The notes under the pieces: model-generated | Seen by the model: only the letters and a program-made list of their open reading frames with translations | The model's database searches: none | Told to the model about the DNA's origin: nothing | From: an uncultured Anaerolineae bacterium | GTDB taxonomy: Bacteria; Chloroflexota; Anaerolineae; Aggregatilineales; UBA3940 | Reading direction: 5' to 3' | Length of the DNA: 64,000 bases | Assembly: GCA_964603985.1 (NCBI GenBank) | Contig: CAZRXG010000015.1 | Coordinates: 11,957-75,956, forward strand | Made by a program: the position numbers and the translations under genes | In this document: positions 836 to 55,333 of the stretch, piece after piece | Numbering within the stretch: position 1 is the first letter of the stretch | How the letters are laid out: each line of letters opens with the position of its first letter

Positions 836-1831
836 GTGATCGAAACCATTCGCAAACTGGCAGCGGCCTACGGCCCCAGCGGACACGAAGACCAGATCCG
901 TGCCTTGATCCTCGACGAGATCACCGGCCTGGTCGATGAAAAGCCGACCGTCGATGCGATGGGCAACGTCATCGCCTGGAGGCGCGGCGGCAAGACAGAC
1001 GCGCCGATGGTCATGCTCTCGGCCCACATGGACGAGATCGGCGTGATGGTCACCCACATCGATGAGGATGGCTTCTTGCGCTTCACCCACATTGGTGGGG
1101 TGCTGGCCGTCTCGTTGGTTGGCAACCGGGTGCGCTTCGCCGATGGCACCGTCGGCGCGATCTACGTCGAGAGGCGTGACAACACTGGCAGCGTCCCCGC
1201 GCTGAGCCAGCTTTACATCGACGTGAGCGATGGCAGTGGCAAACATGCCGTCAAGGTCGGCGATGCGGCGGGCTTCGTGCGTGATCTGGTGGTGCGAGGT
1301 GACAGGTTAACCGCCAAGAGCCTGGATGACCGCGCGGGGTGCGCTGTCCTGATTGAGGTGCTGCGCGGCCTCAAGGACTCCCCCAATGACGTGGCCTTCG
1401 TCTTCACCGTGCAGGAGGAGGTTGGATCGCGTGGTGCGCAGACTGCTGCCTATGCCATAGACCCTGACGTTGGCATCGCGGTTGACGTGACCCGCACCGG
1501 TGACACGCCCAAAGACCGGACGATGGACGTGGTGTTGGGCAAAGGTCCGGCCATCAAGATCAAGGATGGGCGCATGCTGGCCGCGCCGGAGGTGGTTGAC
1601 CTGCTGGAGAAGGCCGCCCGGAAGGCCAGAGTCCCCTGCCAGCGAGAGGTGCTGCTCAGTGGTGGGACCGACGCTGCCGCGATGCAGCTTGTGCGGGCGG
1701 GCGTCCGTGCGGGCTGCCTGAGCGTCCCCTGCCGTTACGTCCACACCACCAGTGAGACGGTGGACATCAATGACGTGCAGAATGCGGTCAAACTGCTGGT
1801 CGCGCTGCTGGAGGGGCCGGTCAAGGTGTAG
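836..1831 (+). CDS. M42 family metallopeptidase (FrvX / glutamyl-aminopeptidase-like)
   Basis: ORF 740..1831. Motifs YGPSGHEDQIR, SAHMDEIG, DDRAGC and FTVQEEVGSRGA are typical of M42. Start moved to the in-frame GTG at 836, which is preceded by GGAG, because 740-835 overlaps the upstream gene. Confidence 0.8.
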   Translation: MIETIRKLAAAYGPSGHEDQIRALILDEITGLVDEKPTVDAMGNVIAWRRGGKTDAPMVMLSAHMDEIGVMVTHIDEDGFLRFTHIGGVLAVSLVGNRVRFADGTVGAIYVERRDNTGSVPALSQLYIDVSDGSGKHAVKVGDAAGFVRDLVVRGDRLTAKSLDDRAGCAVLIEVLRGLKDSPNDVAFVFTVQEEVGSRGAQTAAYAIDPDVGIAVDVTRTGDTPKDRTMDVVLGKGPAIKIKDGRMLAAPEVVDLLEKAARKARVPCQREVLLSGGTDAAAMQLVRAGVRAGCLSVPCRYVHTTSETVDINDVQNAVKLLVALLEGPVKV

Positions 1832-1838
1832 ACTCCCC

Positions 1839-4286
1839 GTGAGCGCCCGCAATGCAACGTCCCACCCCCGGCTCCCGGTCACCACGTTGCTGGCCGTCGG
1901 GCTGCTCTCGGCGGCGATGCTGTCCTTTGAGCTGACGCTGACGCGCCTGTTCGCCGTCGCGCAGTTCTACCACTTTGCTTTCATGGTGATCAGCCTGGCG
2001 CTGCTGGGCCTGGGTGCGGCAGGCTCGCTGTTGAGCGTGTGGCCGAGCCTGGGTGAACACCCCGCCCGGTGGGCGGTGGGCCTTGCGCTGGCGACGTTGG
2101 TAAGTTATGCCATCCTCAACCTGATCCCCTTTGACTCGTATGCCATTGCATGGGACCGCCGTCAGGCGCTTTACCTGGTGCTGACCTTCGCCGGGGCGGC
2201 GCTGCCCTTCGTGTTCGGTGGGTTGGTAGTCGGTGGGCTGCTGGCCGCAGACGTGCGTGGCCTGCATCGCGTCTATGCCGCCAATTTGGCCGGGTCGGCG
2301 TTGGGCTGTGTCGTCGTGCTGCCGCTGCTCGGTTGGTTGGGTGGTGAGGGTGCGTTGTTCGCCGGGGCTGCGTTGGGGCTGGTGGGGGCCGCGTTGTTCG
2401 GCATCGGGCGTGCCGATGGGGGGCGGAGGATCGGGGAACTGGTTGGGGTCGGGGCTGGCATCGTCGCCCTGCTCGTCCTGGCGGTCGCACGCCCGGAGTG
2501 GGCGGCCATCCGGCTCTCGCCTTACAAGGGGCTGCATCAGGCGCTGCTCGCCCCCACTGCCGATCACACCGTATCGGAGTGGGGGATCGTGGCGCGCGTG
2601 GACGTGGTTGAGAGTGACTCGATCCACATCATGCCCGGCCTCAGCCAGAATGCGCTGATCGCTTACCCGCCGCGACAGGCCGGGCTGACGCTCGATGGGG
2701 ACAATCTGATGCCGATCACCGCGCTTGCGCCTGAAGATGAATTAGCCCGCGCGCTGGCTGCCAACGTCCCCCAGGCGGTGGTGACCGCGCTGCGCCCTGC
2801 CCCGGCGTCGGTCTTGATTCTGGAGCCGGGTGGTGGATGGGACGTGCTGTTGGCGCTGGCGGGCGGTGCGGAGTCGGTGATGGTCGTCGAGCGCAGTCCG
2901 CTCGTCGTGAGCGTCCTGCGGGACGATTATGCCGATTTCACACGCCGCCTGTACGATGACCCGCGCGTGATGGTCGTCGTGGCCGAGGGGCGCACTTACG
3001 TTCGTCGCACCGAGCGGCGCTTTGACGTGATCGTCCTCTCGTTGAGTGATTCGTTTCACCCGGTCACATCGGGAGCTTACAGCCTGAGTGAGGATTATCG
3101 CTACACCGTCGAGGCGGTCGGTGATGCGCTGGATCACCTTGCGCCGGGGGGGGTGCTGGTCATGATGCGCTGGTTACAAACCCCGCCCACAGAGTCGCTG
3201 CGCGCGCTGGGGACGGTTGAGGCTGCGCTCCGTGCCCGTGACGTGGAGCGCCCTGCCGATCACATTGCTGCGCTGCGTGGCATGCGCACCATGACCTTCG
3301 TCGTAGGTGAGCAGCCGCTCGGCGCTGCCGACCGGGGGGCAATCCGCGCCTTTGCCGCCTCGCGCGGTTATGACCTGGTCTGGTTGCCGGGCATCTCACC
3401 CGATGAGGTCAATCTCCGCAGTCGCCTGCCTGAACCGGCTTATTACCTGGCCTTCGCTGCGCTGCTCGATGACCCGGTGGGCTTCGTGCGCGGCCACGAG
3501 TTTGACATCCGCCCGCCCACAGACGACCGGCCTTTCTTCTTCCACTACTTCCGTTGGCGGCAGACGCCGCGCGTGTTGGCCGAGTTGGGCCACACCTGGC
3601 AGCCCTTCGGTGGGAGCGGTTACTTTGTGCTGGTGGCGCTGCTCGTCCTGGTGACGATCCTGGCCGCGCTGGCGATTTTCGGGCCGCTGGTGGCCGGGAG
3701 AGTCCCCGCGCCGGGGCCTCGCCCTCACCGGCGGGGAGTGCGCGTCCGGGCGCTGGCTTACTTCTTCGCCCTGGGGTTGGCCTTCCTGTTCGTCGAGATC
3801 CCGCTCGCGCAGCGCTTCATCCTGTTCCTGGGCCAGCCGGTGACGGCGCTGTCGGTGGTGCTGTTCGCGATTCTGCTTTTTTCGGGGGTGGGCAGTCTGA
3901 GTGCGCCGCGCTGGTCGATCCGGGTCGCGTTGGGTGCGTTGGTGATTGCCGTGCTGCTGACGCCGCTCGTGCTGCGCGGCGTGTTCGCGCTGGCGCTGGG
4001 GTGGCCGCTCGCGGGGCGCGTTGCCGTCGCGATCCTCAGCCTGGCCCCGATGGGCGTGCTGATGGGCGTGCCCTTCGCGCGAGGGATGGCCCTCGTTGAG
4101 GAGGCCGCGCCCGGCCTGACGCCCTGGGCGTGGGCGATCAATGGCAGTGCGTCGGTCATCAGTGGGGTGTTGGCGGTCATGGCTGCGCTGAGCTGGGGGT
4201 TCTCGGTGGTGCTGTGGGTGGGCGCGGGGACATACGCGTTGGCGCTGGTCGCCATCGGGGGGATGGACACGGCCCCCACCGGATAG
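1839..4286 (+). CDS. membrane-embedded spermidine synthase-like (aminopropyltransferase-fold) protein
   Basis: ORF 1752..4286, trimmed to the in-frame GTG at 1839 just after the upstream stop. Many TM helices at both ends. Central SAM-MTase/spermidine-synthase-like block: VLILEPGGGWDVLLAL...VMVVERSP...DPRVMVVVAEGRTYV...FDVIVLSLSD...LAPGGVLVM. Confidence 0.75.
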   Translation: MSARNATSHPRLPVTTLLAVGLLSAAMLSFELTLTRLFAVAQFYHFAFMVISLALLGLGAAGSLLSVWPSLGEHPARWAVGLALATLVSYAILNLIPFDSYAIAWDRRQALYLVLTFAGAALPFVFGGLVVGGLLAADVRGLHRVYAANLAGSALGCVVVLPLLGWLGGEGALFAGAALGLVGAALFGIGRADGGRRIGELVGVGAGIVALLVLAVARPEWAAIRLSPYKGLHQALLAPTADHTVSEWGIVARVDVVESDSIHIMPGLSQNALIAYPPRQAGLTLDGDNLMPITALAPEDELARALAANVPQAVVTALRPAPASVLILEPGGGWDVLLALAGGAESVMVVERSPLVVSVLRDDYADFTRRLYDDPRVMVVVAEGRTYVRRTERRFDVIVLSLSDSFHPVTSGAYSLSEDYRYTVEAVGDALDHLAPGGVLVMMRWLQTPPTESLRALGTVEAALRARDVERPADHIAALRGMRTMTFVVGEQPLGAADRGAIRAFAASRGYDLVWLPGISPDEVNLRSRLPEPAYYLAFAALLDDPVGFVRGHEFDIRPPTDDRPFFFHYFRWRQTPRVLAELGHTWQPFGGSGYFVLVALLVLVTILAALAIFGPLVAGRVPAPGPRPHRRGVRVRALAYFFALGLAFLFVEIPLAQRFILFLGQPVTALSVVLFAILLFSGVGSLSAPRWSIRVALGALVIAVLLTPLVLRGVFALALGWPLAGRVAVAILSLAPMGVLMGVPFARGMALVEEAAPGLTPWAWAINGSASVISGVLAVMAALSWGFSVVLWVGAGTYALALVAIGGMDTAPTG

Positions 4287-6536: not shown

Positions 6537-8684
6537 CTATGGTGCCCAGCGAATGTCGTACACGCCCGACAGGCCCTCGATCACGAACATCTCGCCGGTG
6601 GCCGGGTTGACGATCATCAACTGCCCGGCGAGCGTGCCGAACTCGTCTATGCGCCCTTCGGCCAGCCCGGCGATCAGCACCCCGTCCGGTGAGAGGACCG
6701 GCTGCTCCAGCACAATCGCGCCCGTCTCCGGCTGGAGATCGACAATTGGGACCGAGGAAGCTTTCTCCAGCAGCGCGCCGTAAATCTGCACGCTGGTCGG
6801 GCCGGTGGTGTAGGCCGGGCTGAGGCGTCTCAGCAGGGCCAGGCTTCCGTCGGGGCGCACCACCACGTCGGCGATGGGCAGGTCGAGCAGGTCAATAATC
6901 GTCGTCGGCGTCCCCGGCTCGACCAGCTTGAGCGTTGGCTCGCCGTAGTGGCCGCCCTCGTTGTAGACCATGACCAGCCCCTCGTCCGTCCACTTGGCCT
7001 GAGACTGGAAGAGGCCCAGCGTGGTCGGGTTGGGCCGCGTGCCCGTCGAGAGCAGGGCGAAGTCGTAGCCCTCGTAGAAGTTGACCTGCGCCAGCAGCCA
7101 CGCGCCGTCGGGTGACCACTGGGGGTGGCTGTAAATCCTGATCAGCTTTTCCTCGCCGTCTCGCGGGAGGGTATCGGCCACCAGACGGCGCTGCTCGCCC
7201 GTCTCCAGGTCGATGACCCACAGGCCGTTGTTGGCGTAGGCAACCTGCTTGGCGTCCGGCGAGAAGCCCAGTGTCCCCCCGACCGGTTCCGGCAGCGCGA
7301 TCACCTGTGAGACGGACAGCGTATCGACCGCCGCCCGGTAGATCACGCCCTCGCTGGTGTAGACGATCTCCGTCCCGTCCGGGGCGACGTCGTAGGCGGT
7401 GACATCGGAGATGGCGTCGGTGATCACCTCCGGTGGCTGGCCGTTGGATGGGAGCCGCCACACCTGCACCACGTCGTTCTTTGGGGCGAGGAAGTACAGG
7501 TCGGCGGGCAGCGGCAGGCTGGTCACGCTCTGTGGTGGGGGATCGCCCCAGCCGAAGCCGACCGGTGACCCCGCTGCCTCAAACGTCGCCTGTGCCCCCG
7601 TCAGCGCGTCGAGCAGCAGGATGGTCGTCGGGCCGTCGGGGTCGCGGCCTATCAGGCGGGTGGCGGTCGGGTTCCAGATGAAGTCCGCCGTCTGCACGGG
7701 CAGGTTGCCCTCCTGGTGGAAGCTCAGGTCTTCCGGGTCGCCCAGGTACAGAAAACCCGGCCCCTCGATGCCCTCGTCGTGCACGAAGAAGACCAGCGTC
7801 CCGTCGGGCTGCTGGCCCGGCAGTGAGACCTGCCGGTCCTGGCGCACCATGAAGGCCCGCGAGTCGAGGTCTTCTGGGTGGACCAACGCCAGCCCGCCCT
7901 CAGCCGGGGCGAAGGCCAGCCGCCCGTCGGCCAGCCAGGTGTAGCCGTTGATCGCGCCCAGCTCGACCCACAGCGCCAGCAGCGGGTCGGAGCGGTACAG
8001 CGTGGCGACGCCGTCCGCACGCCACGCCAGCAGCCACCCCGAATCGGCTGACCAGCCCAGGTCAACCAGCGGCTCCTCAGGCGCGTCGAAGACCAGCGGC
8101 CCGAAGTCCACGCCCGCGCCGGGGATGTACAGCCGGAAGCCGGTGCCGGTGGAGTAGGCTATCTTGCTGGCGTCCGGCGACCAGCATACCGTCTGCCCGC
8201 GCGCGTCTTCCGGCGGCGTGCCGATGCCGTTGTCGAGCATCTGGCCGCCGGTCCCCGTCAGCGAGGCGACGGCCAGGAACTCGTCGGTGCGGTAGAGCAG
8301 CCAGTCCCCGCCCGGTGCCACGTCGAAGTCACGCACCACCAGGTCGAGGCGCGTCACGGAAGCGGCTGCGTGCTCGTCCCCGGCCAGCGGCTGCCACCAC
8401 ACCTGCCCGGCGTCGTTCAGGTAGAACAGGTCGGCGGCCAGCGGCCAGGCCGTCATCAGGGGTGGCTCGGTGGGCGGCGGGGTCGGGGTGAGCGTCACCA
8501 GGTCGGCCGTCGGCGTGGGCGGCGGGGCCTCCATCGGCTCGACCTCGGTCTCGACTTCGGGTGGGGTGGCCGTCGCCGCAGAAACCGGTTCGCCGGGCGG
8601 CGCGTTGGGCGCGGCTCCCGGCATCTCCAGGATGCTGCACGCCGGTAACATCAGCAGGATTAGCACTGCAAGGGCTTTACGCAT
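6537..8684 (-). CDS. lipoprotein with TolB-like beta-propeller (WD40-like) repeats
   Basis: Lipobox MRKALAVLILLMLPAC. Pro/Thr-rich linker. Repeated motifs of the WSPDG.../FSPDAKQVAY type. Confidence 0.75.
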   Translation of the reverse strand: MRKALAVLILLMLPACSILEMPGAAPNAPPGEPVSAATATPPEVETEVEPMEAPPPTPTADLVTLTPTPPPTEPPLMTAWPLAADLFYLNDAGQVWWQPLAGDEHAAASVTRLDLVVRDFDVAPGGDWLLYRTDEFLAVASLTGTGGQMLDNGIGTPPEDARGQTVCWSPDASKIAYSTGTGFRLYIPGAGVDFGPLVFDAPEEPLVDLGWSADSGWLLAWRADGVATLYRSDPLLALWVELGAINGYTWLADGRLAFAPAEGGLALVHPEDLDSRAFMVRQDRQVSLPGQQPDGTLVFFVHDEGIEGPGFLYLGDPEDLSFHQEGNLPVQTADFIWNPTATRLIGRDPDGPTTILLLDALTGAQATFEAAGSPVGFGWGDPPPQSVTSLPLPADLYFLAPKNDVVQVWRLPSNGQPPEVITDAISDVTAYDVAPDGTEIVYTSEGVIYRAAVDTLSVSQVIALPEPVGGTLGFSPDAKQVAYANNGLWVIDLETGEQRRLVADTLPRDGEEKLIRIYSHPQWSPDGAWLLAQVNFYEGYDFALLSTGTRPNPTTLGLFQSQAKWTDEGLVMVYNEGGHYGEPTLKLVEPGTPTTIIDLLDLPIADVVVRPDGSLALLRRLSPAYTTGPTSVQIYGALLEKASSVPIVDLQPETGAIVLEQPVLSPDGVLIAGLAEGRIDEFGTLAGQLMIVNPATGEMFVIEGLSGVYDIRWAP

Positions 8685-8749
8685 CGCTGCTTCGCCTCAC
8701 TAAAAATAATACGACACCGGGTTCGGGCCGGGCGGCTCGCCGTCCCGGC

Positions 8750-8992
8750 TTACCCTCTGATGGCCTTCTTGAATGCTTTACGGATCTCGCCAACCTCGGC
8801 GTGACGACCCGTCCGCAGCTTACTGTAGACCAGATCGCCGTTGATCTCCACCTCGAAAGCGCCTCCCCCGCCGGGGATGAGCGTCCACTCGTCGATGTAG
8901 GACTCGAACTCCTGGAGGATGTTTTCCGTCATACTGACGGCGTAGGGGAGGTAGTGTCAAGCCGCGCAGTAGGTGATCGATACGGACAGCAT
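8750..8992 (-). CDS. Rdx family (SelW/SelT/SelH-like) selenoprotein with in-frame UGA = Sec at 8957-8959
   Basis: My own minus-strand reading: GAAGGAG-6nt-ATG(8992) MLSVSITYCAA-TGA-HYLPYAVS, then the 60-aa track ORF MTENILQEF...LIPGGGGAFEVEINGDLVYSK.... The C-x-x-U redox motif and the PG.GG.FEV block match the Rdx family. Confidence 0.8.
8926..8940 (-). promoter_or_regulatory. candidate bacterial SECIS hairpin
   Basis: CCGUCA-GUA-UGACGG, a 6-bp stem with G/U in the loop, starts 16 nt after the UGA. Confidence 0.35.
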
Positions 8993-9030
8993 GCGTTACT
9001 CCTTCGATGTGGGTGGTGATAACTGCCGCA

Positions 9031-9039
9031 AGTATAGCA
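9031..9039 (-). promoter_or_regulatory. extended -10 promoter (TGcTATACT) for the selenoprotein gene
   Basis: The minus strand reads cttGCTATACTtg, about 40 nt upstream of ATG 8992. Confidence 0.35.
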
Positions 9040-9107
9040 AGACCCGCCGGGAATCAAAAGACCGCGCTCGTGGTGCAGGCAAGTTCTTTTTCCTCCCGGC
9101 GCTCGAT

Positions 9108-9224
9108 GAGCTTTAACCGTTTAGTCCGGGCACCGTTTGCCCCCCACCCCCGCCCAGAGCAGCCAGACGAGCCACATCTCCGTCATGGCCGGATTAGGCT
9201 CAAGGTGTATAAGGGACTTTGCGG
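9108..9224 (+). repeat. MITE/REP-like intergenic element, copy B (short form)
   Basis: gagctttaaccgtttagtccgggcaccgtttgccccccaccccc ... gcagccagacgagccacatctccgtcatggccggattagg ... caaggtgtataagggactttgcgg. Lacks the central hairpin module. Confidence 0.65.
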
Positions 9225-9245
9225 CTGCGTGCCTGGAGGGGCATC

Positions 9246-11321
9246 CTACTCGCACGGCTCGCCGGGCGGGGCGAAGTACCAGTCCTCGACGTTCCAGGAG
9301 GCGTAGTTGATGGGGCCTTTCTGCGGGCCGCACAGGCCGGGGGCGTGCGCCTCGACCTCAACCCGCTGGAACAGCGGAAGCTGCGGCAGCTCCGCGTTGA
9401 AGATGCGCTGCGCCTCCAGGTAGAAGGGCCGCCGCTCGGAGGGGGCGAGGGCGTTCTGCCCGTCGAATAAAGCCTGGGTCATCGCGGCACTGCACCAGGC
9501 GAGGTAGTTTTTGCCTTCCAGGCCGTCGCGCGTCTCCGGGACCTGCTCCGGGTAGTGCAGCACGTAGCTCTCCGGCAGATTCTCCGCCGTTGGTCTCCCG
9601 AACAGGAACCACTCGCGCGGGCTGGGATACAGAGCAGTCATCTCGTAGGGGACGACGATCTGGCCGAGCAGGTCGGGATGATCGGCCAGAATTTGTCCGG
9701 CGACCAGAAACTTGCCGTCGGGCGTGCGGTAGATGTTTTGCCCGGCGAAGAGGCCGAGCTTGTCGGGGTTGGGGCCAGAGGTCCAGGCAGATTGGCCGAT
9801 CTGGTAGGTGCGCCCGAAGAGCAGCCCCTCCGGGTCGAACCACACCGAGGGCAGCAGGAGATCCAGGTTGACCTTGATGCCGATGTCGGCCATGTTGGCC
9901 TGGAACAGCGTGCTCAACTGCTCGCGCATCGCGTCGCCGGTGGTGGTGTGGAAGGTGACCTCAAATGGCGTGCCCGCCGGGATGGTCCAGGTGCCGCGCT
10001 CGCAGCCGTACTCGCCGCTCAGATCCTCGCGTGCCTCGCGGACGCCGTCGCCGTCGATGTCCAGCCAGCCCGCCTCTTCGAGCAGGGCGCGTGCGTGGTC
10101 GGGGTCGTAGGGATACTGGCCCTCGATCTCCGGGTTGAAGGCCCAGTGATCGGGTGGCAGGAAGCTGTCGAGCGGCTCGACCTCGCCGTAGAGGACCTGA
10201 TCGGCCATCTCGCGGCGGTTGGTGCCGTAGGCGACCGCCTGGCGCACGCGCAGGTCGGCGAAGAAGGCCCACCCTCCGCTCTCGGCGTCGGGCGGGGGCC
10301 AGTGGTTGAAGTCGATGTGCTCCCAGGTCGTCGAGGGGACGGCGCTGTATTCGATCAGGCCCTCGTCTGCTGCCTCGCGGATGGTGGGCAGCTGGGTCAA
10401 TGGGAGGCCGTCGCCGGTCGCGTAGTCGCACTCGTCCGCCAGCAGCGATGACAGCATCTGTTTGGTGTCGGGGATGAAGCGGTAAACCAGATTGGGGGTT
10501 TTGACCTCGCCGCCCCACCAGCTCGTGACGGCCCGCATGGTGACGTGCTCTCCTGCCGCCCACTCGACGAACTCGTAGGGGCCGAGCACGGGGTTGGGCA
10601 GGCGGGCGTACTCGCTGCGCTCGATCTCGGCGGGGGTCATGCCGCCCAGAACGTGCTCAGGCAGGATGGTCGAGAGCGCCGCCGGGCCTGCCAGCGGCGG
10701 CAGAAAGTACGTCGGGTCGAGGACGCCGGGCGGGTAGGTCACGCGCAGCGTGTGGTCGTCGATCTTCTCGAAAGTCTGCCGCTCCAGGATGCCGCGCGAG
10801 GTCGCCCCGGAGCCGGGGTCGATGACCACCTGGCGGGTGAAGATGATGTCGTCCACCGTGAACGGCTCGCCGTCCGACCAGGTGATATCGTCCTTGAAGC
10901 GAAAGGTGACGCTCAGCACGGCGTTGGGGCCTTCTCCCTGCAGCGTGGCGCTGCCGTCCTCGAAGCCGGGGAATGCGTCGTCCGCGAGCATCTGCGTCGC
11001 GTAGAAGTAGTCGCTGTCGTAGATCCAGCCTTTGCCGTCGGCGGCGTGCAGGATCTGCACGGTGGCGGCCATGGTGCTGGTCACCGCGTACAGGCTGTCC
11101 GGCTCCTGGCTCATGCAGATGGTGATGGTATCTTTTGGCTCAGGCGTCGCGGCGGGGGCGGTCGTGGGGGGCGTGGTCGGCTCCTCGGTGACCCTGGTCG
11201 CGGCGGCGGTCAGGGTCTTGCCGCCGTCGCAGGCTGCCAGTGCGAGCGCAGCCGCCAGCACGAGTGTCCCGACGAGCGCCCGTCGATTGCTGAGTGTGGT
11301 CTGCTTGGTCTTCGTTGTCAT
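9246..11321 (-). CDS. ABC transporter substrate-binding protein, family 5 (peptide/nickel type), lipoprotein
   Basis: Start set at MTTKTKQ (ATG 11321, AGGAG upstream). Lipobox LALAAC. Length and composition are typical of SBP_bac_5. No cognate permease genes are adjacent. Confidence 0.8.
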   Translation of the reverse strand: MTTKTKQTTLSNRRALVGTLVLAAALALAACDGGKTLTAAATRVTEEPTTPPTTAPAATPEPKDTITICMSQEPDSLYAVTSTMAATVQILHAADGKGWIYDSDYFYATQMLADDAFPGFEDGSATLQGEGPNAVLSVTFRFKDDITWSDGEPFTVDDIIFTRQVVIDPGSGATSRGILERQTFEKIDDHTLRVTYPPGVLDPTYFLPPLAGPAALSTILPEHVLGGMTPAEIERSEYARLPNPVLGPYEFVEWAAGEHVTMRAVTSWWGGEVKTPNLVYRFIPDTKQMLSSLLADECDYATGDGLPLTQLPTIREAADEGLIEYSAVPSTTWEHIDFNHWPPPDAESGGWAFFADLRVRQAVAYGTNRREMADQVLYGEVEPLDSFLPPDHWAFNPEIEGQYPYDPDHARALLEEAGWLDIDGDGVREAREDLSGEYGCERGTWTIPAGTPFEVTFHTTTGDAMREQLSTLFQANMADIGIKVNLDLLLPSVWFDPEGLLFGRTYQIGQSAWTSGPNPDKLGLFAGQNIYRTPDGKFLVAGQILADHPDLLGQIVVPYEMTALYPSPREWFLFGRPTAENLPESYVLHYPEQVPETRDGLEGKNYLAWCSAAMTQALFDGQNALAPSERRPFYLEAQRIFNAELPQLPLFQRVEVEAHAPGLCGPQKGPINYASWNVEDWYFAPPGEPCE

Positions 11322-11574: not shown

Positions 11575-12789
11575 TCAACCCTCCGTCGTGATGTGTCCCT
11601 CGACCACGTGCCAGCGCGTCGCCTGGCGCAGAACCTCGTCCGGCAGCAGGCCCGGCTCGGTCGTCGTCAGCAGCACCTGATCTGCGCCGTTGATTTGCTC
11701 CATCAGGTAGGCGCGGCGGTGCTCGTCGAACTCGGCGGTGACCTCGTCGAGCAGCAGCAACGGCCACTCACCGGTGCGCTCGCGCATCCAGGCCAGCTCG
11801 GCCAGCTTGAGCGCCAGCACCGCCGTCCGGTTCTGCCCGCGCGAGCCGTACAGCCCCAGGTCGCGCCCGTTGACGAGGAAGCGCATCTCGTCGCGCTGCG
11901 GCCCGATGGTCGTCATGCCGCGCACGAGGTCGTCGCGGCGGTGGGCATGTAAGGCCGCTTTGAAGCGCTCCGCGATCTGTGAGGGTGGCAACTGCGGCAG
12001 TGCCTCGACGCCCAGGTCGCCTGCGTCAAAGCTCAACTGGCCCTCCGGCGTGGGGGCCGGGTCGAAGCCGGGCAGGTAGCGCAGGCGGAGGTTCTCGCCC
12101 TCGCCGGAGAGGTCGCGGTGGATCTGGCGGGCCCCGCGCTCCAGGTCGCGCACCAGCCGGTAGCGCCCGGCGACGATGACCGCGCCGTTACCGGCCAGCC
12201 GCTCATCCCAGAAGGCCATCTGCGAGGCGTCGCCGCGCCCGCCCCGCTCCTGAAGCTGCCTCAGCAGGGCGTTGCGCTGCGAGAGGACTTTGTCGTACTC
12301 GCTGAGCGCGCGGCAGTAGGCCGGGTCGACCTGGCACAGGGTGATGTTCAGGTAGCGGCGGCGGGTGCTCGGTGAGCCTTCGACCAGGTCCATATCCTGC
12401 GGCAGGAACATCACCACCCGGATCTGGCCCAGCAGATCCATGACGCGCCGGGGCAGCCCGTTGACGCGGATCTGCTTCTTGAAGCGCACCTCTCGCCCCG
12501 TGCGCTCAAGCATCATCCCCACCTCGACGCGCTTGAGGCCCTCGCGGGTCTGCACTTCGGCCACCAGCCGCGCGAACGGGATCGGCTCGTCGTCGGCCAG
12601 CCAGTTGATCAACTGGCGGTCGGAGGTGGTGTGCGGCGAGCGCGAGGTCGTCAGGTAGTAGATCGACTCAAGCAGGCTGGTCTTGCCCTGGGCGTTATCG
12701 CCGTGCAGGACGATCATCCCCGGCGGCAGGTCCAGCTCCAGCCGGGCGTAATTCCTGAAATTGGTCAGCGAGAGATGCGAGATGCGCAT
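11575..12789 (-). CDS. recF: DNA replication and repair protein RecF
   Basis: MRISHLSLTNFRNYARLELDLPPGMIVLHGDNAQGKTSLLESIYY (Walker A), plus LLLDEV and the signature region. Start taken at the second Met of the ORF. Confidence 0.9.
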   Translation of the reverse strand: MRISHLSLTNFRNYARLELDLPPGMIVLHGDNAQGKTSLLESIYYLTTSRSPHTTSDRQLINWLADDEPIPFARLVAEVQTREGLKRVEVGMMLERTGREVRFKKQIRVNGLPRRVMDLLGQIRVVMFLPQDMDLVEGSPSTRRRYLNITLCQVDPAYCRALSEYDKVLSQRNALLRQLQERGGRGDASQMAFWDERLAGNGAVIVAGRYRLVRDLERGARQIHRDLSGEGENLRLRYLPGFDPAPTPEGQLSFDAGDLGVEALPQLPPSQIAERFKAALHAHRRDDLVRGMTTIGPQRDEMRFLVNGRDLGLYGSRGQNRTAVLALKLAELAWMRERTGEWPLLLLDEVTAEFDEHRRAYLMEQINGADQVLLTTTEPGLLPDEVLRQATRWHVVEGHITTEG

Positions 12790-12808
12790 GAGTCTCCACC
12801 GGCTCATG

Positions 12809-30692: not shown

Positions 30693-30821
30693 GAGGCAGG
30701 CGCACGAACCTGCTCCTGAGTGTCTATCCGTCCGGTCGCCGCGCACCCCGGATCGTTGTGTCCGGGGTCTTTGATGTTGCGGCGGCCCCCGGTTCTTTCT
30801 AAACAAGGAGAAGGTGCACGC

Positions 30822-32072
30822 ATGACACGGCGTAATCGGACGTTGCTGGTGGGCGCTGTGCTGGCGCTGGGTGTGGTGCTGTTGGTGATCACCGGATGCG
30901 GTGGGCAGCGCCAGCGCCCCGACGTGGCCGCCATGGAGAAGGGGGCGGGCGTTGACTTTTGCGACCGCTACCCGCAGCCGGTAGCCAGTCCATACGTTCC
31001 GTTGAGCGACGTACTGGCGGGGCTGCCCGGCGAGCACGCGCGCGGGGCGAGGCAGCCGATCGTCCAGTTCACCCTGTACGGCGACCTGCAATGCCCGCCT
31101 TGTGCCGAGACGGTGAAGAGCCTCGATAAGCTGCTCGAAGCGTATCCCGACGAGGTGCAGGTGGTCTTCCATCACCTGCCGCTGGTCGATGTGCATGACA
31201 AGGCTCATCTGGCCGCTCAGGCGACTGAAGTGGCATCCGGTCAGGGTGGCAGCGAGGCCTTCTGGGCGATGCACGACTTGCTTTATGAGCGCCTGGAGGA
31301 GTGGGACCCGCTGTCTGAAGAGGAGTTCAAGGAGAAGTTGGCCGATTATGCCGGGGAGATCGGGTTGGACGAGGAGCAGTTCACCAGGGAGCTTGAGAGC
31401 GGGGGCTATGCGGGGTTGATCGACTTCTCCCTCACCACCGCGCTTGAGATGCCCGGCATGCAGGGGGTGCCGATACTGTACGTGAACGGCCAGCCGCTCG
31501 TGTTGCCGCCGGTTGACTTCGTCAGTCTCGATGCGCTGTTCAAGCTCCTCCGGGCGCAGTCGGTTTACAGCGAGGCGCCGCCGATGAAGATCGACCCGAA
31601 GAAGGAGTACGTGGCCTGGATCGTCACCGAGCACGGCGACGTGGCGGTCAACCTGTTCGCCGACCTGGCCCCGGAGACGGTCAACAACTTCGCGTACCTG
31701 GCCTGTACCGGCTACTACGACGACCTCACCTTCCACCGCGTGATCTCCGGCTTCGTGGTGCAGACCGGCGACCCCAGCGCGACGGGGTATGGCGGGCCGG
31801 GCTACACCGTCCCCGACGAGTTTGAGAACAGCAAGCTGGCCTTCGACCGGCCCGGTTGGCTCTCGATGGCGCACACCGACCAGCCGGATACGGCCGGCGG
31901 GCAGTTCTTCATCACGCTTGGCTCGGCACCGCAGCTTAACAATGCCTTCACCATCTTCGGGGAGGTGGCCGACGGGATGGACGCGGTCTACCAGATCGGC
32001 GAGCACGACCCGGAGAACCTGTACGTACCGGGCGACCGGCTGGTGACGGTGATCGTGCGCGAGGTGGAGTAG
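30822..32072 (+). CDS. lipoprotein fusion of a DsbA-like thioredoxin domain (CPPC) and a cyclophilin-type peptidyl-prolyl isomerase
   Basis: AAGGAGAAGG SD. LLVITGC lipobox. YGDLQCPPCAE. C-terminus FHRVISGFVVQTGDP...GGQFFITL is the cyclophilin signature. Confidence 0.85.
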   Translation: MTRRNRTLLVGAVLALGVVLLVITGCGGQRQRPDVAAMEKGAGVDFCDRYPQPVASPYVPLSDVLAGLPGEHARGARQPIVQFTLYGDLQCPPCAETVKSLDKLLEAYPDEVQVVFHHLPLVDVHDKAHLAAQATEVASGQGGSEAFWAMHDLLYERLEEWDPLSEEEFKEKLADYAGEIGLDEEQFTRELESGGYAGLIDFSLTTALEMPGMQGVPILYVNGQPLVLPPVDFVSLDALFKLLRAQSVYSEAPPMKIDPKKEYVAWIVTEHGDVAVNLFADLAPETVNNFAYLACTGYYDDLTFHRVISGFVVQTGDPSATGYGGPGYTVPDEFENSKLAFDRPGWLSMAHTDQPDTAGGQFFITLGSAPQLNNAFTIFGEVADGMDAVYQIGEHDPENLYVPGDRLVTVIVREVE

Positions 32073-34659: not shown

Positions 34660-36351
34660 GTGATAAGTGTTATGCAGGCATTGAATGATATGATTGAGGC
34701 TCATCCCACTCACAAAATACATAGGGAGTTGAGAAAGCAACAGGTTCTGGAAGCTTTCTCGGACTATATTGATGAGACCACCTTTTACCAATGGCATCTG
34801 AGCCTCTATAAGTTCGCTACGGTCAGGCCATTAGTTTACTATCGTGATTCCACCATTTCTGACGCGCTAGACTTCTTTAGTCAGAGTCCTGATCTGGCCC
34901 TGGAAGCCATTTGTGCCTTTCAGCGAGAGTTAAACCACTCCATCATGTCGTTACTACGCCCAGCCAGAAGCTGGGAGAAGGAAGATAAACTATCCCTGGA
35001 TAACCCAGAGCAAATCTTCGAATTTGAGAGTGTGTGGCACCCTGAGTACCAGAGATACTCTGAGCATGTATTCAATCATCTAATCAATGTGCCTTTGTAT
35101 ATGTTGGGTCGCCTCAACCGAAAACCTAAAGCGAAGAAGCCAAAGGACTTCGTCAGTCAAACCCTCGCCAATAGAGTAGAGACGCTCAAAGACAAGAAGT
35201 TAACTTCTTTGACTGATGGGTTTGAACCGATTGTGAGAAATGCGATCTCTCATGGAGGAGTAGACTTCGGACTTGTTGAGATTACATATATCGACAAGAG
35301 AAAGAATGCCCAAAAGGTCCTCTCTGCTTATGAGTTCTCGCAGCTTTTCGACGACATGGTCGACACGTGTCATTCTATTCTCATAGCAATGCTTTTGTTT
35401 GTCTGCAATCACCGCCCTCTTGTCCAAACCCATGGTCTGCATCGTCTTCCATTGGGCCTACGTTTTTTGTTTATTGACGCGATTGCCTCAACTACTCGCT
35501 TTCAACTCCTTACAATGATAGAGAGCCGCGCAGTTATAGGCAACCGGAGGCAACTGAACATATCATGCAGGATAGATACATGCTCGCGCTTAACACACAC
35601 ATATGAGGCGATTGCTGCCTGCTGGCATTCAGCCAGCTTTGGCGGGGAGGATTATGAACGCTTTGCAGTGAGTATAGACTGTGGGAGACTCGTTACTTCA
35701 TCCCTATTCGTAGATGGGGATGTACTCCATCAAGCGATCTCCAAAAACTGGACAATTGATCAATGCAGAGAAGCAAAATTGGTGGAAACTGATCTTCTGT
35801 GGTTTGATGTGCCGACTTTACAGCGGAAGATGAACTCCTGGCGTAACTTGTTCTTAGCACGGTGGGAGTTGTGTAAGCGACAAGTGATCCAGCAATGGCG
35901 TCAAGGCGGTTTTAAGATGCTGGGCTCGCGTTATTCAATCCGACATATCATCGACAAGAGCGCCGAAAAAATCCGTCGAATTGAGGCCTATGTTGTACTG
36001 CATGAAACCGGAACTATCACTGATGCAGAGATTCATAGCATCATCAGGCACATTGTCAAGCGATTACGAAAACATAGGATTAAAGGAAAAAGATTAGACA
36101 GAGAGATTGGGTTTTCTAGGAAGCCAAACTATATCTGGATACGGTTGTATGCTGCCGATAGAAGGCTCAGACGATTTTCAGGCTGGCATGATGGTAATTT
36201 AATCCTAATGGCTGAGTGGTTTTCGCGTTGGAAAAATAATGGCCCAATATTTGTCAAGAGTCCACATCAGGAAATTAGTGAGATCCGTATTCGGTATAAT
36301 CCGGAATTGACCATAGACGAGGATGGAAATCCCGCATTTACTGTTGCCTGA
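34660..36351 (+). CDS. hypothetical 563-aa protein in a low-GC island, with an RNxxxH (HEPN-like) motif
   Basis: Clean ORF with no antisense shadow ORFs. Hand-counted 60-nt lines give 38-55% GC, against about 75% just upstream. Contains EPIVRNAISHGGV. No family recognised. Confidence 0.7.
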   Translation: MISVMQALNDMIEAHPTHKIHRELRKQQVLEAFSDYIDETTFYQWHLSLYKFATVRPLVYYRDSTISDALDFFSQSPDLALEAICAFQRELNHSIMSLLRPARSWEKEDKLSLDNPEQIFEFESVWHPEYQRYSEHVFNHLINVPLYMLGRLNRKPKAKKPKDFVSQTLANRVETLKDKKLTSLTDGFEPIVRNAISHGGVDFGLVEITYIDKRKNAQKVLSAYEFSQLFDDMVDTCHSILIAMLLFVCNHRPLVQTHGLHRLPLGLRFLFIDAIASTTRFQLLTMIESRAVIGNRRQLNISCRIDTCSRLTHTYEAIAACWHSASFGGEDYERFAVSIDCGRLVTSSLFVDGDVLHQAISKNWTIDQCREAKLVETDLLWFDVPTLQRKMNSWRNLFLARWELCKRQVIQQWRQGGFKMLGSRYSIRHIIDKSAEKIRRIEAYVVLHETGTITDAEIHSIIRHIVKRLRKHRIKGKRLDREIGFSRKPNYIWIRLYAADRRLRRFSGWHDGNLILMAEWFSRWKNNGPIFVKSPHQEISEIRIRYNPELTIDEDGNPAFTVA

Positions 36352-39173: not shown

Positions 39174-41357
39174 ATGGCCCGGCAATCCTATACGCCCGAA
39201 TACCAACACTCCTGGGCGCTCGTGATCGGCATCGACAGCTACCAGGACACCAGCCTCCCGCCACTGGAAACGGCGGTCAAGGGCGCGCGGGAGGTGGCCC
39301 AACTGCTGCAAGATGACCTGGGCTTCGACGCCGGGCGCATCATCCGGCTGGAGAATGAGCAGGCCACCCAGCGCGCCATCCGCCGGGCGTTCGCCGATCC
39401 GCTGGGGCGGGCCGACCGGGTTGGCCGCGATGACCGGGTGCTGATCTACTTCGCCGGGCACGGCTTGACCTACGACACCGCAGAGGGCCTGATCGGCTGC
39501 GTCGCGCCCTACGACATCGAGACGGCCTATTGGGACACTGCCATCCCGATGGATGAGCTGACGCGGCTGGCGAACCGCAGCCATGCCAAGCATGTGCTGT
39601 TCCTGCTGGATGCGTGCTTCTCAGGCTTCGCGACGGTGCGCGAGGTCGACAGCGGGGCACAGCGCCAGGTGGCCGACTACCTGACCCGGCCCGTGCGGCA
39701 GGTGATCGCCGCCGGGACGCGTGAACAGGCGGTCAGCGACCTGTGGGGGCCGGGGCGGCACTCGCTGTTCACGGGGTTCCTGCTGGAAGGGCTGAGCGGA
39801 GCCGCGCCCGCGCCGGGGGGCATCCTGCGGGCGTTCCACCTGGCGGGGTATTTGCAGGACGTGGTGGCACAGCACTCGCGCTCGCGGCAAACGCCGCAGT
39901 ACGCGGCGCTGATGGGCAGCAGCGGCGGCGACTTTGTATTTGGCGTGCGTGACGTGGTGCAGCTTCCCCAGTGGCTGACGGCCTTCGCCGAGAGCGCCGA
40001 CCCCAGCCAGCGCGTGATGGCCGTCCGTGAGCTTTTGAAGACGGCCCAGGGCGACGATCCGTGCCTCGCCGATGTGGCACTGGATCACCTGGAGCGGTTG
40101 TGTGGCGACGAGGACGCCATTGTCCGCTCGTCTGCGGCGGCGGCGCTGGGGCAGGTCGCGCCCGCGCCTGAGCCGCCCGCCCCGGAGGACGTGCGCGATG
40201 AGCCGGTGCAGGTCGCGCCCGCGCCTGAGCCGTCCACCCCAACACGCCCGGTGCCGGGTGCGAAACGCGCACGTCAGGGCTTAAAGCCGCTGTGGATCGT
40301 CGGCGGGCTGGCAGGCGCGGCGGTGCTGGTGGTTGTGCTGCTGGCGCTGTCGGGGGTGATCGGGAAACCGGCAGCCGAGGAGGAGCCGGTAGAGGAAGAG
40401 GAACCGGCGGTTGTGGAGAGTATCCCGGTTCCCGACGTGGTGGGCATGGACATCGCTTCTGCCAGAGCGGCCCTGGAAGACGCCCGGTTTGTGGTTGAGG
40501 TGCTCGAAGAGGAAGGTGAGTTGATCATCGGCCAGGCGCCCGCCGTCGAAGAGCAGGCCGACATCGTCGACGATCAGGACCCTGACGCCGGTACGCTTCT
40601 GGGTACAGGAGAACGGGTGATTATCGTGCTGAAGATGCCCCCAACTTATGTCACACCCACTCCCTCATACGAGAAGCCCCCCCTCACGGTGGGAGATTAT
40701 TTTGTCTACAGAATGAGCTGGGACGAATCGGAGAAGACCTACAGCGTCGTGGGCGGGGACCAGGTAAACGGGCGTCCTGTCTGGGTTGTGGAGGCCACCT
40801 GGGATACGGACGGCTACCAGTCGTACCTGGAGACGGTCTGGGTAGATCAGGAAACAGGCGTGCACCTCCAGCTCGAGTTGAACGAGGTTTACGCCTCTCC
40901 TAAAACCTGGCTCATCGACGAGGAACAGGTTCAGGTTACGGAGAGAAGATACAGCTCCAGCTATGAGCTTGAGGAGGGCATCCAGGAAAAGGTATCGATT
41001 GTAATTGACACCTCGAATGAGGAACACGAATCATTCGGTCAGATCGTAGGAGGCCCCAGCATCTTCAAAATCACCCGCGATCTGAAAATAGACGAATGGT
41101 ACCCCTGGAAATTTGAGGGTCAATGGCCCTCGCAGGTGGTCGGGGAGGACGTTATCGCCGTACCGGCGGGCACCTTCGACTGCTGGGCTGTCAAGACCGT
41201 TCAATCGGAGGACGGGCAGCACTACATTCGCTACTTCGATAAAGAGACGGGCATGCTGGTCAGGTACGAAAACTGGGTCAAGCGTGACGACGAGTGGGAG
41301 ATCGTCGAGGGGGAAGTGCTGATCTCGTTCCTGTACAGCGCAGCCGGGAACAGGTGA
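39174..41357 (+). CDS. caspase-like (peptidase C14) protein with HEAT-like repeats, TM helix, PASTA-like segment and an unknown C-terminal domain
   Basis: WALVIGIDSY..., catalytic His in VLIYFAGHG, catalytic Cys in VLFLLDACFSG. HEAT-like VRELL...DEDAIVRSSAAAALGQ. TM LWIVGGLAGAAVLVVVLLAL. PASTA-like VPDVVGMDIASARAALEDARFVV. Confidence 0.85.
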   Translation: MARQSYTPEYQHSWALVIGIDSYQDTSLPPLETAVKGAREVAQLLQDDLGFDAGRIIRLENEQATQRAIRRAFADPLGRADRVGRDDRVLIYFAGHGLTYDTAEGLIGCVAPYDIETAYWDTAIPMDELTRLANRSHAKHVLFLLDACFSGFATVREVDSGAQRQVADYLTRPVRQVIAAGTREQAVSDLWGPGRHSLFTGFLLEGLSGAAPAPGGILRAFHLAGYLQDVVAQHSRSRQTPQYAALMGSSGGDFVFGVRDVVQLPQWLTAFAESADPSQRVMAVRELLKTAQGDDPCLADVALDHLERLCGDEDAIVRSSAAAALGQVAPAPEPPAPEDVRDEPVQVAPAPEPSTPTRPVPGAKRARQGLKPLWIVGGLAGAAVLVVVLLALSGVIGKPAAEEEPVEEEEPAVVESIPVPDVVGMDIASARAALEDARFVVEVLEEEGELIIGQAPAVEEQADIVDDQDPDAGTLLGTGERVIIVLKMPPTYVTPTPSYEKPPLTVGDYFVYRMSWDESEKTYSVVGGDQVNGRPVWVVEATWDTDGYQSYLETVWVDQETGVHLQLELNEVYASPKTWLIDEEQVQVTERRYSSSYELEEGIQEKVSIVIDTSNEEHESFGQIVGGPSIFKITRDLKIDEWYPWKFEGQWPSQVVGEDVIAVPAGTFDCWAVKTVQSEDGQHYIRYFDKETGMLVRYENWVKRDDEWEIVEGEVLISFLYSAAGNR

Positions 41358-44654: not shown

Positions 44655-44762
44655 GGCCCCGGCGGCCCGGCTCACGCCAACGAGCGACGGGAATACGCTT
44701 CCCTCCGCGTGGGCAGGGAGTATAATCGGTGAACAGCGTCGCTCGTGATGAGGGAGATCGAC

Positions 44763-46193
44763 ATGCTTGAGTACCAGCCGTTCTACGCCAATTCATACGC
44801 CCTGGTGATGGGCATTAACGCCTATAAGCACCTGGCTCCGCTCTCGGCGGCGGTGGGTGGTGCGGAGCGCCTGGCGGGCGTCCTGGAGGAGCACTATGAC
44901 TTCGAGGTGACGCTGCTGGCGGATCGGCGCGTGACGCGTGATGCGGTCTTCGAGTGGTTGGGCGCGATGGCCCACGACGCCGGGCCGGACGACCGGGTGC
45001 TGATCTACTTCGCCGGGCACGGGATGACGCGTGGATCGGGCGTCTATGAGCGGGGTTACCTGGGCCTGGCGCACTCCGAGCCGGGCCGCTGGCACACCAC
45101 GCTGGCGATGGACGACATCATCGAGGAGGCGCGCTTCCTCAAGGCCAAGCACCTGCTTTACCTGCTCGACTGCTGCTTCGGCGGGATGGCGCTTGAGACG
45201 CGGGCGGCGGTCGACGTGCCGCGCGAGCTTGATTACTACCTGACACGCCCGGTGCGCTACGTGATCACGGCGGGCGGCAAAGAGGTGGTCGATGATGCGC
45301 TGGCCCCCGGCATGGAGCAGAGCCTGTTCACCCACCACCTGCTGGAGTGGCTGGTTAGCGAGCACGTCAGGCCGCCGGGGGGCATCTGGCGGGCGCGCGA
45401 ATTGGGCAATTACCTTGAGCGCACGGTGGCGCGCAACCGGCGCAGCGGTCACAAGCCGAATCACAATTACCTGCCGGGCAGCGGTGATGGCGATTTCCTG
45501 TTCCGGTGGGAGAGCGACCCGCGCCTGATCACCGAGGGCGTGAGTGGCGCGCTGCGCTCGACGAGCTGGCACGTGCGGCAGGGCGCGGTGGCGGCGCTGA
45601 TCGACATGGCGCGCGGTGACGATGCCGAGCGGGTGGCCTACGCCCGTGACCGGCTGGCGCGCATCGCGGGGGAGGACGCGGACGAGCGCGTGCGGCAGAC
45701 GGCGCAGGTCTTCCTCGATGAAGAGCCGCCCCCGCCTCCACCCGTGACCGAAGCCCCGCCGCCTGTGCCGGTCGCCGCGCCGCCGGAGGTGCGGCCCCGG
45801 CCCGCCGGGGTGATGCCCGTCCTCAGGCGGTGGTGGGGCGTGATCCTCTGTGGGCTGGCCGCCGTGCTGGTGGCGATCCGCTTTGCGGTGGATGTACTCG
45901 AACTTTTCTGGAGTGACTTCGTTTACGGCTCCAGGCAGGAGATCGTGGTCGCAGCCGGGCTGCTCATCGGCGTGGTCGGCGTGGGGCACCTCACCAGACG
46001 GCGCTGGCTGCGCGGCGCGCTCTTCCTGCTGGCCGCGCCGGGCTGGCTGTTGTTCGTGCTGTACGAAACCTTCGAGTGGTACAACACCTGGCTGCACTGG
46101 TTGGACTACCTGGTGTGGCTGCCCTTTGTCCTGACCGTCGGAGCGCTGGTCTGGTCGGTGGTGGACGCCGTCCGGGGCGGGGAAGAGAGCTAG
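44763..46193 (+). CDS. caspase-like (peptidase C14) protein with HEAT-like repeat and C-terminal TM helices
   Basis: YALVMGINAY..., VLIYFAGHGMT, LLYLLDCCFGG. HEAT-like HVRQGAVAAL...DADERVRQTA. 3-4 C-terminal TM helices. Start at MLEYQ after GAGGGAG. Confidence 0.85.
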   Translation: MLEYQPFYANSYALVMGINAYKHLAPLSAAVGGAERLAGVLEEHYDFEVTLLADRRVTRDAVFEWLGAMAHDAGPDDRVLIYFAGHGMTRGSGVYERGYLGLAHSEPGRWHTTLAMDDIIEEARFLKAKHLLYLLDCCFGGMALETRAAVDVPRELDYYLTRPVRYVITAGGKEVVDDALAPGMEQSLFTHHLLEWLVSEHVRPPGGIWRARELGNYLERTVARNRRSGHKPNHNYLPGSGDGDFLFRWESDPRLITEGVSGALRSTSWHVRQGAVAALIDMARGDDAERVAYARDRLARIAGEDADERVRQTAQVFLDEEPPPPPPVTEAPPPVPVAAPPEVRPRPAGVMPVLRRWWGVILCGLAAVLVAIRFAVDVLELFWSDFVYGSRQEIVVAAGLLIGVVGVGHLTRRRWLRGALFLLAAPGWLLFVLYETFEWYNTWLHWLDYLVWLPFVLTVGALVWSVVDAVRGGEES

Positions 46194-54755: not shown

Positions 54756-54956
54756 ATGCAGGTTCAACTGGACGGCCAGCTTGTCAGGCTGCTTCAGCGC
54801 CTCGCCGAGCAGCAGGAGCGCGGCGTTGATGAGCTTGTCAAGGAGGCGGTGGAGCAGTATCTCATCCGCCAGCAAGAGGCAGCGGAGTTCGACGCCGACA
54901 TCAGGCGCATCATGGATGAACACGCCTGGCTGCTCAAAAAACTTGCCAAGTCGTGA
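54756..54956 (+). CDS. putative antitoxin (Phd-role; RHH-like by eye) of the Doc toxin
   Basis: 66 aa, MQVQLDGQLVRLLQRLAEQQERGVDELVKEAVEQYL.... Its stop overlaps the GTG start of doc as GTGA. Confidence 0.7.
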   Translation: MQVQLDGQLVRLLQRLAEQQERGVDELVKEAVEQYLIRQQEAAEFDADIRRIMDEHAWLLKKLAKS

Positions 54957-55333
54957 CACGCTACCTCACCGCCGACGAAGTCGAGCGGATCAATGGCATG
55001 GTTCTGGGCGGCCAATCGGCGCTTCGCGACCGGGCCTTACTTGAGTCGGCTGTAGCACGCCCGGCGAGCAGCGCGTTCGGCGAGGATGCATACCCGACGA
55101 CGCTTGATAAAGCTGCTGCCCTGTTGCACTCGCTCGTGCTCAATCATCCCTTTGTGGATGGCAATAAGCGCACCGCGACCGTGGCGATGATCTACTTCCT
55201 GGAACGCAATGGCCTACGCGTCACGTGGGAGCCTGCTGAGGCGTTGGACTTCATCCTCGAAGTCGCCCAGGGCCAACATGATGTCCCTGCTATTGTGGCT
55301 TGGCTGGCAGATAATACGGAAGCCGCGCCGTAG
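54953..55333 (+). CDS. doc: Doc (death-on-curing) Fic-family toxin
   Basis: HPFVDGNKRTA motif, 126 aa, paired with the small upstream gene. Confidence 0.9.
   Translation: MTRYLTADEVERINGMVLGGQSALRDRALLESAVARPASSAFGEDAYPTTLDKAAALLHSLVLNHPFVDGNKRTATVAMIYFLERNGLRVTWEPAEALDFILEVAQGQHDVPAIVAWLADNTEAAP

Follow-up and report, generated by a model that had tools for sequence, protein, structure and literature searches.

Is the small open reading frame on the minus strand at 8750-8932 a complete gene, or is it the larger part of a gene whose beginning was cut away at a TGA codon that the cell may read as selenocysteine (Sec)? The question concerns one locus of the window, by which we mean the whole 64-kb stretch of DNA analysed here. 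The mechanical list of open reading frames gives at this locus a 60-residue ORF only. However, the same frame can be followed further upstream, through a TGA codon and up to another ATG at 8992. If the TGA is a stop, the product is a protein of 60 residues. If it is decoded as Sec, the gene codes for a SelW-like protein of 80 residues with a Cys-x-x-Sec motif. From the comparative sequence analysis presented below we hold with high confidence that 8992-8750 is a genuine gene for such a Sec-containing SelW-like protein.

Gene layout and reading frame

The coding part of the locus and its translation signals are as follows.

8750-8992, minus strand: full SelW-like (Rdx) coding sequence as seen by translation, 80 residues with the putative Sec at residue 12, stop codon TAA at 8752-8750
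8999-9005, minus strand: Shine-Dalgarno sequence GAAGGAG, 6 nt before ATG 8992 (spacer TAACGC), read directly from the sequence
8992-8990, minus strand: start codon ATG, read directly and by translation
8966-8968, minus strand: TGC for Cys9, with which the CxxU redox motif begins; this Cys is invariant in all orthologs
8957-8959, minus strand: in-frame TGA, putative selenocysteine codon (residue 12), at a column which holds TGA or Cys in the relatives
8932-8930, minus strand: internal ATG, read directly
8750-8932, minus strand: 60-aa ORF given by the mechanical call and by public annotation, without strand beta-1 and the redox motif

From 8992 the minus strand reads ATG CTG TCC GTA TCG ATC ACC TAC TGC GCG GCT TGA, and the TGA at 8959-8957 is followed by CAC TAC CTC CCC TAC GCC GTC AGT ATG, the last of these codons being the internal ATG. 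The frame translates as MLSVSITYCAA up to the TGA and continues behind it with HYLPYAVSMTENILQEF...AIRG to the stop codon. The first-pass annotation of this DNA had proposed that a frame from ATG 8992 runs through the TGA and is fused to the 60-aa ORF, that ATG 8992 has a good Shine-Dalgarno sequence and ATG 8932 has none, and that the 60-aa ORF lacks the redox motif of its family. All three statements are borne out, the first of them in every coordinate. GAAGGAG is found at 9005-8999, direct reading of the sequence shows no GGAG-like site before ATG 8932, and the match of the 60-aa ORF to its family begins only at profile position 19.

Family assignment and predicted fold

With U written as C, the 80-residue product matches the Pfam family Rdx (PF10262) with 69.4 bits (E=3e-19, profile positions 2-71 of 74, cut-off 22.6). 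The 60-aa ORF reaches 44.3 bits and covers positions 19-71 only. The rise of the score on adding the 20 upstream residues, the extended profile match and the presence of TGA in 37 related loci (see below) together put the full frame well beyond chance. The NCBIfam model TIGR02174 (CXXU_selWTH) is also passed, with 57.7 bits where 34.2 are required (profile positions 1-70 of 74). Thus, the assignment to the Rdx (SelW/SelT/SelH) family in the first-pass annotation is confirmed by two models. Among the NCBIfam models NF041051 (SelTWH_Campy) has the top score, 79.7 bits, which is below its curated cut-off of 88 bits; membership in this equivalog was therefore rejected.

The motif C9-A-A-U12 follows directly after VSITY, that is, after strand beta-1, at the place where the family carries its CxxC or CxxU. 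Eight solved structures match by sequence, namely 2fa8, 3dex, 2ojl, 2ljk, 2oka, 2obk, 2p0g and 2npb (mouse SelW). These matches begin at query residue 4, or at residue 2 in the case of 2npb, and in the three alignments that were printed (2fa8, 3dex and 2ojl) a CxxC stands opposite the query's C9-A-A-U12.

The fold was judged on the AlphaFold model of P0004, a Cys-form homolog with 56% identity, and was transferred to the window protein by homology. The model (pLDDT 80) shows the order beta1(6-13)-CxxC-alpha1-beta2-beta3-beta4-alpha2. In Foldseek it superposes on 2fa8, 2obk, 2oka, 3dex and 2p0g with TM values of 0.72-0.88 and an rmsd of ~1.5 A; bacterial SelW-related structures are ranked first, followed by mouse SelW and MIEN1 and then by thioredoxins. 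By homology a thioredoxin-like beta-alpha-beta-beta-beta-alpha fold is predicted for the window protein. The 20 dropped residues make up beta-1, the redox motif and the first part of alpha-1, so that a product of 60 residues would contain only part of the domain.

The TGA codon and the upstream start in related loci

A protein search returned ten relatives. Nine of them are stored as fragments of 57-61 residues, and the tenth, P0004, has its full length of 92 aa and carries CxxC. All fragments with readable DNA continue upstream through an in-frame TGA to M-L-K-V-S-I-T-Y-C-x-x, with a stop before it, so that a segment M..(I/L)x(Y)C-x-x is conserved ahead of the in-frame TGA in these homologs. 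The exact 60-aa sequence is present in public collections, and other members of its 90%-identity cluster, near-identical fragments of 60 residues, bear the JGI name 'selenoprotein W-related protein'.

We then compared 72 loci, 71 of which come from an alignment-based metagenome scan and one from a Pirellulales genome. The CxxU column holds TGA in 37 and TGC or TGT in 34 of them, the motif region being missing in one; one of the two metagenome search patterns required Cys and the ratio of TGA to Cys is thus not an unbiased frequency. The Cys forms are the more distant homologs, mostly with less than 45% identity, and among the closer relatives nearly all are of the Sec form. The proposal that a U stands in this column is therefore upheld by the orthologs.

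When the genome contigs were scanned with the single protein, one locus only was found, which also carries the TGA. This Pirellulales locus (L009, 3001-3243 of the MAG contig DASZPH010000100.1) is a SelW-like gene of 42% identity in a Planctomycetes genome. It reads RYCSV-TGA-NYEPQAVS at the CxxU column and has a hairpin at about the same distance as the window gene. Since TGA is found here in the Planctomycetes, the Sec form spans several phyla.

The segment (I/L)xYCxx-TGA-xYxPxAV is kept in the orthologs, with synonymous variation around the TGA across the 37 loci. Most of the 35 distinct orthologs have an upstream ATG with a GGAG-type site before it. The codon which corresponds to ATG 8932 is often CTG, GTC, TTG or GTG, and ATG 8932 is therefore not a conserved start. 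The first-pass annotation had named a consistent start of the orthologs at the downstream Met as a point that would speak against its proposal; what we find is the reverse, as the upstream start and its Shine-Dalgarno sequence are conserved and the downstream Met is not.

A separate observation concerns the locus L051 (1501-1716). It reads ECCAV-TGA-GDLLRAV, has the changes Y8C, Y14D, P16L and R63C at otherwise invariant positions, and its hairpin is disrupted. This ortholog looks degraded and may be in the course of decay.

These comparisons bear directly on the possibility that the TGA is a real stop. The locus would then be a decayed Cys-form Rdx gene, or it would code for a leader peptide and for a separate 60-residue protein which starts at ATG 8932. 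Such a reading agrees with the output of the gene callers, which is exactly the 60-aa ORF here and in the relatives, and with the fact that no Sec machinery is seen in the window. However, the 60-residue product would be devoid of beta-1 and of the redox motif, which define the fold, and it would have to be translated from an ATG without a Shine-Dalgarno sequence at a codon that is not a start in many orthologs. In addition, the TGA and both flanking peptides are kept in 37 loci with synonymous variation, which is unlike a pseudogene, and the upstream start, its Shine-Dalgarno sequence and the -10 element described below are conserved. We therefore regard a real stop at this position as very unlikely. 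The 60-residue call is a truncation artefact, in which the UGA Sec codon was read as a stop by the gene callers, and truncation at UGA is a familiar type of annotation artefact.

A SECIS-like hairpin downstream of the UGA

The first-pass annotation had put forward the following hairpin as a candidate SECIS element.

8926-8940, minus strand: candidate bacterial SECIS core CCGUCA-GUA-UGACGG, with a 6-bp stem and a 3-nt loop

The hairpin lies within the coding sequence and begins 16 nt after the UGA. It consists of CCGUCA (8940-8935), the loop GUA (8934-8932) and UGACGG (8931-8926), and the distance from the UGA to the loop is 22 nt. In the bacterial SECIS model the loop has 3-9 nt, with a G as its first or second nucleotide and mostly a G or U behind it; the upper stem comprises 4-16 bp, the UGA and the loop are 16-37 nt apart and the MFE is <= -7.5 kcal/mol (PMC13188914). 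The window hairpin fits these constraints with its 3-nt loop GUA (G then U), 6 bp, 22 nt and -7.8 kcal/mol; the energy was obtained for a local fold with short flanks and lies marginally within the limit, and only if flanking bases are included. For the bare stem-loop of the Sec-form hairpins the median energy is ~-6.5 kcal/mol, and a value of <= -7.5 is reached in only 10 of 32 Sec forms. A wider fold of 76 nt is not significantly more stable than its shuffles (z = -1.35). The support is thus limited to the short hairpin, and there is none for a long lower stem.

The comparative evidence comes from 35 distinct orthologs of the Sec form, which align without gaps and in which the G of the loop (column 26, G26) is invariant. 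In the specified helix of seven pairs 84% of the cells are paired and four of the seven pairs have changed on both sides (22 cells); as the orthologs are related and the set is partly redundant phylogenetically, fewer independent changes lie behind these counts than the number of cells suggests. The pairing and covariation scores of the alignment were not attained in any of 500 shuffles, and if the 3' arm is slid by 1-3 columns the pairing falls from 84% to 18-53%. RNAalifold, which was supplied with no structure, arrives at the same helix (columns 20-24 with 30-34) and shows compensatory changes at four of the five pairs. Thus, the candidate proposed earlier gains from both sides: it fits the model of a bacterial SECIS, and covariance folding yields a conserved helix with compensatory substitutions at four pairs.

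Could the covariation be a by-product of the protein sequence? Pair 21/33 links the wobble base of an Ala codon to that of a Thr codon, and the two codons occur as GCC/ACG (15), GCG/ACC (8) and GCU/ACA (3). Furthermore, the Ser codon in the loop of the hairpin is AGU (AGT), which makes up only 5% of the Ser codons in the window genes. Coding constraint therefore does not explain the covariation. The Sec forms (n=32) have on average 5.5 of 6 pairs and 23 of them are perfect, whereas the 27 distinct Cys forms have on average 2.9 of 6 pairs and none is perfect. A hairpin which covaries in the Sec forms and is absent from the Cys forms appears to be under selection as RNA. Rfam gave no matches, neither for the whole window at gathering thresholds nor for 8600-9400 at E<=1; this is consistent with no described family fitting a short hairpin within a coding region.

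Promoter and downstream gene

Upstream and downstream of the gene two further features are of interest.

9031-9039, minus strand: extended -10 element TGCTATACT (TGn + TATACT), 38 nt upstream of ATG 8992, read directly
6537-8684, minus strand: downstream neighbour coding for a 715-aa protein with a lipoprotein-signal-like N-terminus, 65 nt after the selenoprotein stop

The extended -10 element had been noticed in the first-pass annotation and is indeed present at 9039-9031. Of the 35 distinct orthologs, 17 have the motif TGnTAnAnT in the 130 nt ahead of their start codon, whereas ~0.01 occurrences per 130 nt are expected from the window's own frequency. It is therefore very probable that the SelW-like gene has its own promoter. 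The promoter claim rests on the conserved extended -10 element; a consensus scan of 8500-9400 did not find a full sigma-70 site with both hexamers. Within the same limits (8500-9400) no intrinsic terminator was found, which includes the interval between the SelW-like gene and the next gene.

The 715-aa protein has no Pfam match at 1e-5 and only faint precomputed matches of the Tricorn/PD40-type beta-propeller kind. In the closest clade (L001-L008, L014, L016 and L017, with proteins 55-61% identical) its gene comes directly after the SelW-like gene, an order that is not kept in the more distant Sec-form loci. The neighbour is located at 10224-12377 in L001 and at 8469-9640 in L006. Because no terminator was found and the two genes are syntenic in the closest clade, a bicistronic transcript of both genes is possible. 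A functional link between them is possible as well, judging from the gene order. Of the independent transcription unit that had been suggested for this locus, the part which stands is the own, conserved -10 element; the separation from the next gene is not supported, as no terminator was found before it and the gene order is retained in the closest clade.

Genetic code and selenocysteine machinery

The window contains 24 genes with Pfam support, of which 11 end with TGA, 10 with TAG and 3 with TAA. With TGA terminating 11 of 24 supported genes UGA is an ordinary stop codon in this organism, and any recoding is site-specific. The standard code is thus in use in the window. We also looked for other genes with an in-frame TGA in the window and found no convincing candidate; the crude GC3-flank scan used here narrowly missed the SelW gene itself and therefore excludes none.

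ARAGORN predicts no tRNA in the 64-kb window and no tRNA-Sec in either the window or 31 related loci, and the Rfam model for tRNA-Sec (selC) has no match in the 64-kb window. Signature motifs of SelA, SelB and SelD are absent from the six-frame translation of the window (regex search). Likewise, SelA, SelB and AIRS domains are absent from a Pfam scan of 40 window ORFs, which cover all long coding regions. The absence of selA, selB, selC and selD from 64 kb says nothing about the whole genome. The RecF protein of the window (11575-12807) has its nearest relatives among proteins named Anaerolineae or Chloroflexi bacterium and shares 58% identity with the protein of Aggregatilinea lenta. The Chloroflexi are reported to include Sec decoders (PMC1794560; PMC5322559), and we expect that selA, selB, selC and selD are encoded elsewhere in the genome.

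It could be argued that read-through of the UGA inserts an amino acid other than Sec. Either a near-cognate insertion of Trp or Cys would be stimulated by the hairpin, or UGA would be reassigned throughout the lineage. In favour of this argument one may cite that the hairpin is minimal and that no Sec machinery was found within the 64-kb window. A reassignment is, however, at odds with the use of TGA as terminator in 11 of 24 supported window genes. A near-cognate insertion has to contend with the position of the UGA, which is the column of the second redox Cys in a family named for its CxxU motif, and with the hairpin itself, which has the invariant loop G, the UGA-to-loop spacing and the stem length of a SelB-dependent SECIS element; the Sec decoders reported among the Chloroflexi likewise speak for selenocysteine. 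We consider read-through with another amino acid to be very improbable.

Two more speculative ideas can be entertained. The lineage might do without canonical selB and selC and the hairpin might bring about UGA read-through by another route; in a milder version, the SelW-like protein and the 715-aa protein might form a specific redox pair. We give little credence to them. Finally, the TGA might be a misread or misassembled TGC or TGT, for which a single-base difference would suffice. This is effectively refuted, as independently made assemblies of an identical or nearly identical sequence (L085 from a Logan run; L013 from JGI) have the TGA too, and so do dozens of orthologs that have diverged further.

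Other features of the window

The window contains several other genes which we note in passing. A 563-aa ORF at 34660-36351 (plus strand) has GC contents of 0.50/0.37/0.48 at codon positions 1/2/3, the surrounding GC3 being ~0.85. It has no match in Pfam, PHROGs or PADLOC and by its composition looks like a recently acquired gene. At 56517-57920 (plus strand) a phage terminase large subunit is encoded (Pfam Terminase_6N/6C; PHROG 2, E=1e-41), and near to it, at 54953-55333 (plus strand), a Doc-like toxin gene (PHROG 577, E=6e-31). The ORFs 57907-58779 and 59646-61208, which flank this region, gave no family matches. The terminase/Doc region may be a prophage remnant or another mobile element.

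Two proteins with a caspase domain (Peptidase_C14) are encoded less than 7 kb apart, at 39174-41357 and 44745-46193 (both plus strand), and the first of them also has a PASTA domain. In a 450-aa protein at 30720-32072 (plus strand) a DsbA/thioredoxin-like domain is joined to a peptidyl-prolyl isomerase domain of the cyclophilin type. The 844-aa ORF at 1752-4286 (plus strand) has no Pfam match and weak PADLOC matches only (mad2, E=1e-6; JetC, E=2e-4).

Discussion

We suggest that the gene is expressed as a selenoprotein in the following way. Translation would begin at ATG 8992 behind the Shine-Dalgarno sequence and would give an 80-residue product of the Rdx family. The hairpin CCGUCA-GUA-UGACGG, which we take as a minimal bacterial SECIS inside the coding sequence, would recruit SelB carrying Sec-tRNA(Sec), and the UGA at 8959-8957 would then be decoded as selenocysteine. 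The product is likely a small protein of the thioredoxin fold, and Cys9-x-x-Sec12, placed between beta-1 and alpha-1, could act as its thiol/selenol redox centre.

The SelW-like gene and nearly all of its public relatives are stored as fragments of 57-61 residues without the catalytic motif. Owing to this kind of storage, selenoprotein counts and the apparent use of selenium in the Chloroflexota come out too low where pipelines ignore UGA as a Sec codon. The set of orthologs is a clean and covariation-backed case of a very compact bacterial SECIS in conserved codons, and it could help to train SECIS predictors. Knowledge of selenoprotein biology is unchanged by this SelW-like gene; its value lies in the annotation.

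How does the gene compare with known systems? Bacterial SelW-like selenoproteins have reportedly been catalogued by Zhang and Gladyshev in their surveys of the Sargasso Sea and GOS selenoproteomes. SelW-like proteins with CxxU belong to the earliest and most abundant bacterial selenoprotein families that computation brought to light. With 48 genes the SelW-like family is the largest selenoprotein family of the Sargasso Sea data (PMC1088965). The family is also found in genomes of Deltaproteobacteria, Clostridia and Symbiobacterium, and Sec has been proposed as its ancestral state (PMC1794560). In a 2026 review SelW-like (PF10262, CxxU) is listed as 'predicted with high confidence' (PMC13188914). 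The window protein shares with these selenoproteins the domain, the size class of ~80-100 residues and the position of CxxU directly after beta-1. The mixture of Sec and Cys forms and the small G-loop SECIS hairpin in the coding sequence just after the UGA are also common to both. There is no difference in kind. What sets the window copy apart is its origin in an Anaerolineae lineage that is uncultured, a SECIS core that with 6 bp and a 3-nt loop is among the smallest the model allows and, in its closest clade, the downstream gene for the 715-aa protein with a lipoprotein-like N-terminus.

The solved Cys forms are Agrobacterium Atu0228 (2fa8), Streptomyces SAV_2001 (3dex) and the proteins from Pseudomonas (2oka/2obk), Vibrio (2p0g) and Bordetella (2ojl). 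Similarity to the window protein begins at residue 4 with the CxxC aligned, and the P0004 model agrees with them at TM 0.72-0.88. They differ in having CxxC (TQC/VPC types), no UGA or SECIS, a length of ~100-108 residues and longer tails. Mammalian SelW (2npb, CxxU) and MIEN1 (2ljk, CxxC) share the thioredoxin-like Rdx fold and carry the motif at the same place, but their sequence similarity to the window protein is weak (E ~1e-4). Eukaryotic Sec insertion relies on a SECIS in the 3'-UTR with a kink-turn quartet and on SBP2, not on a hairpin in the coding region that is bound by SelB. In summary, the window gene is an ordinary member of a well-known and abundant family of bacterial selenoproteins, and what we report is a re-annotation and not a discovery.
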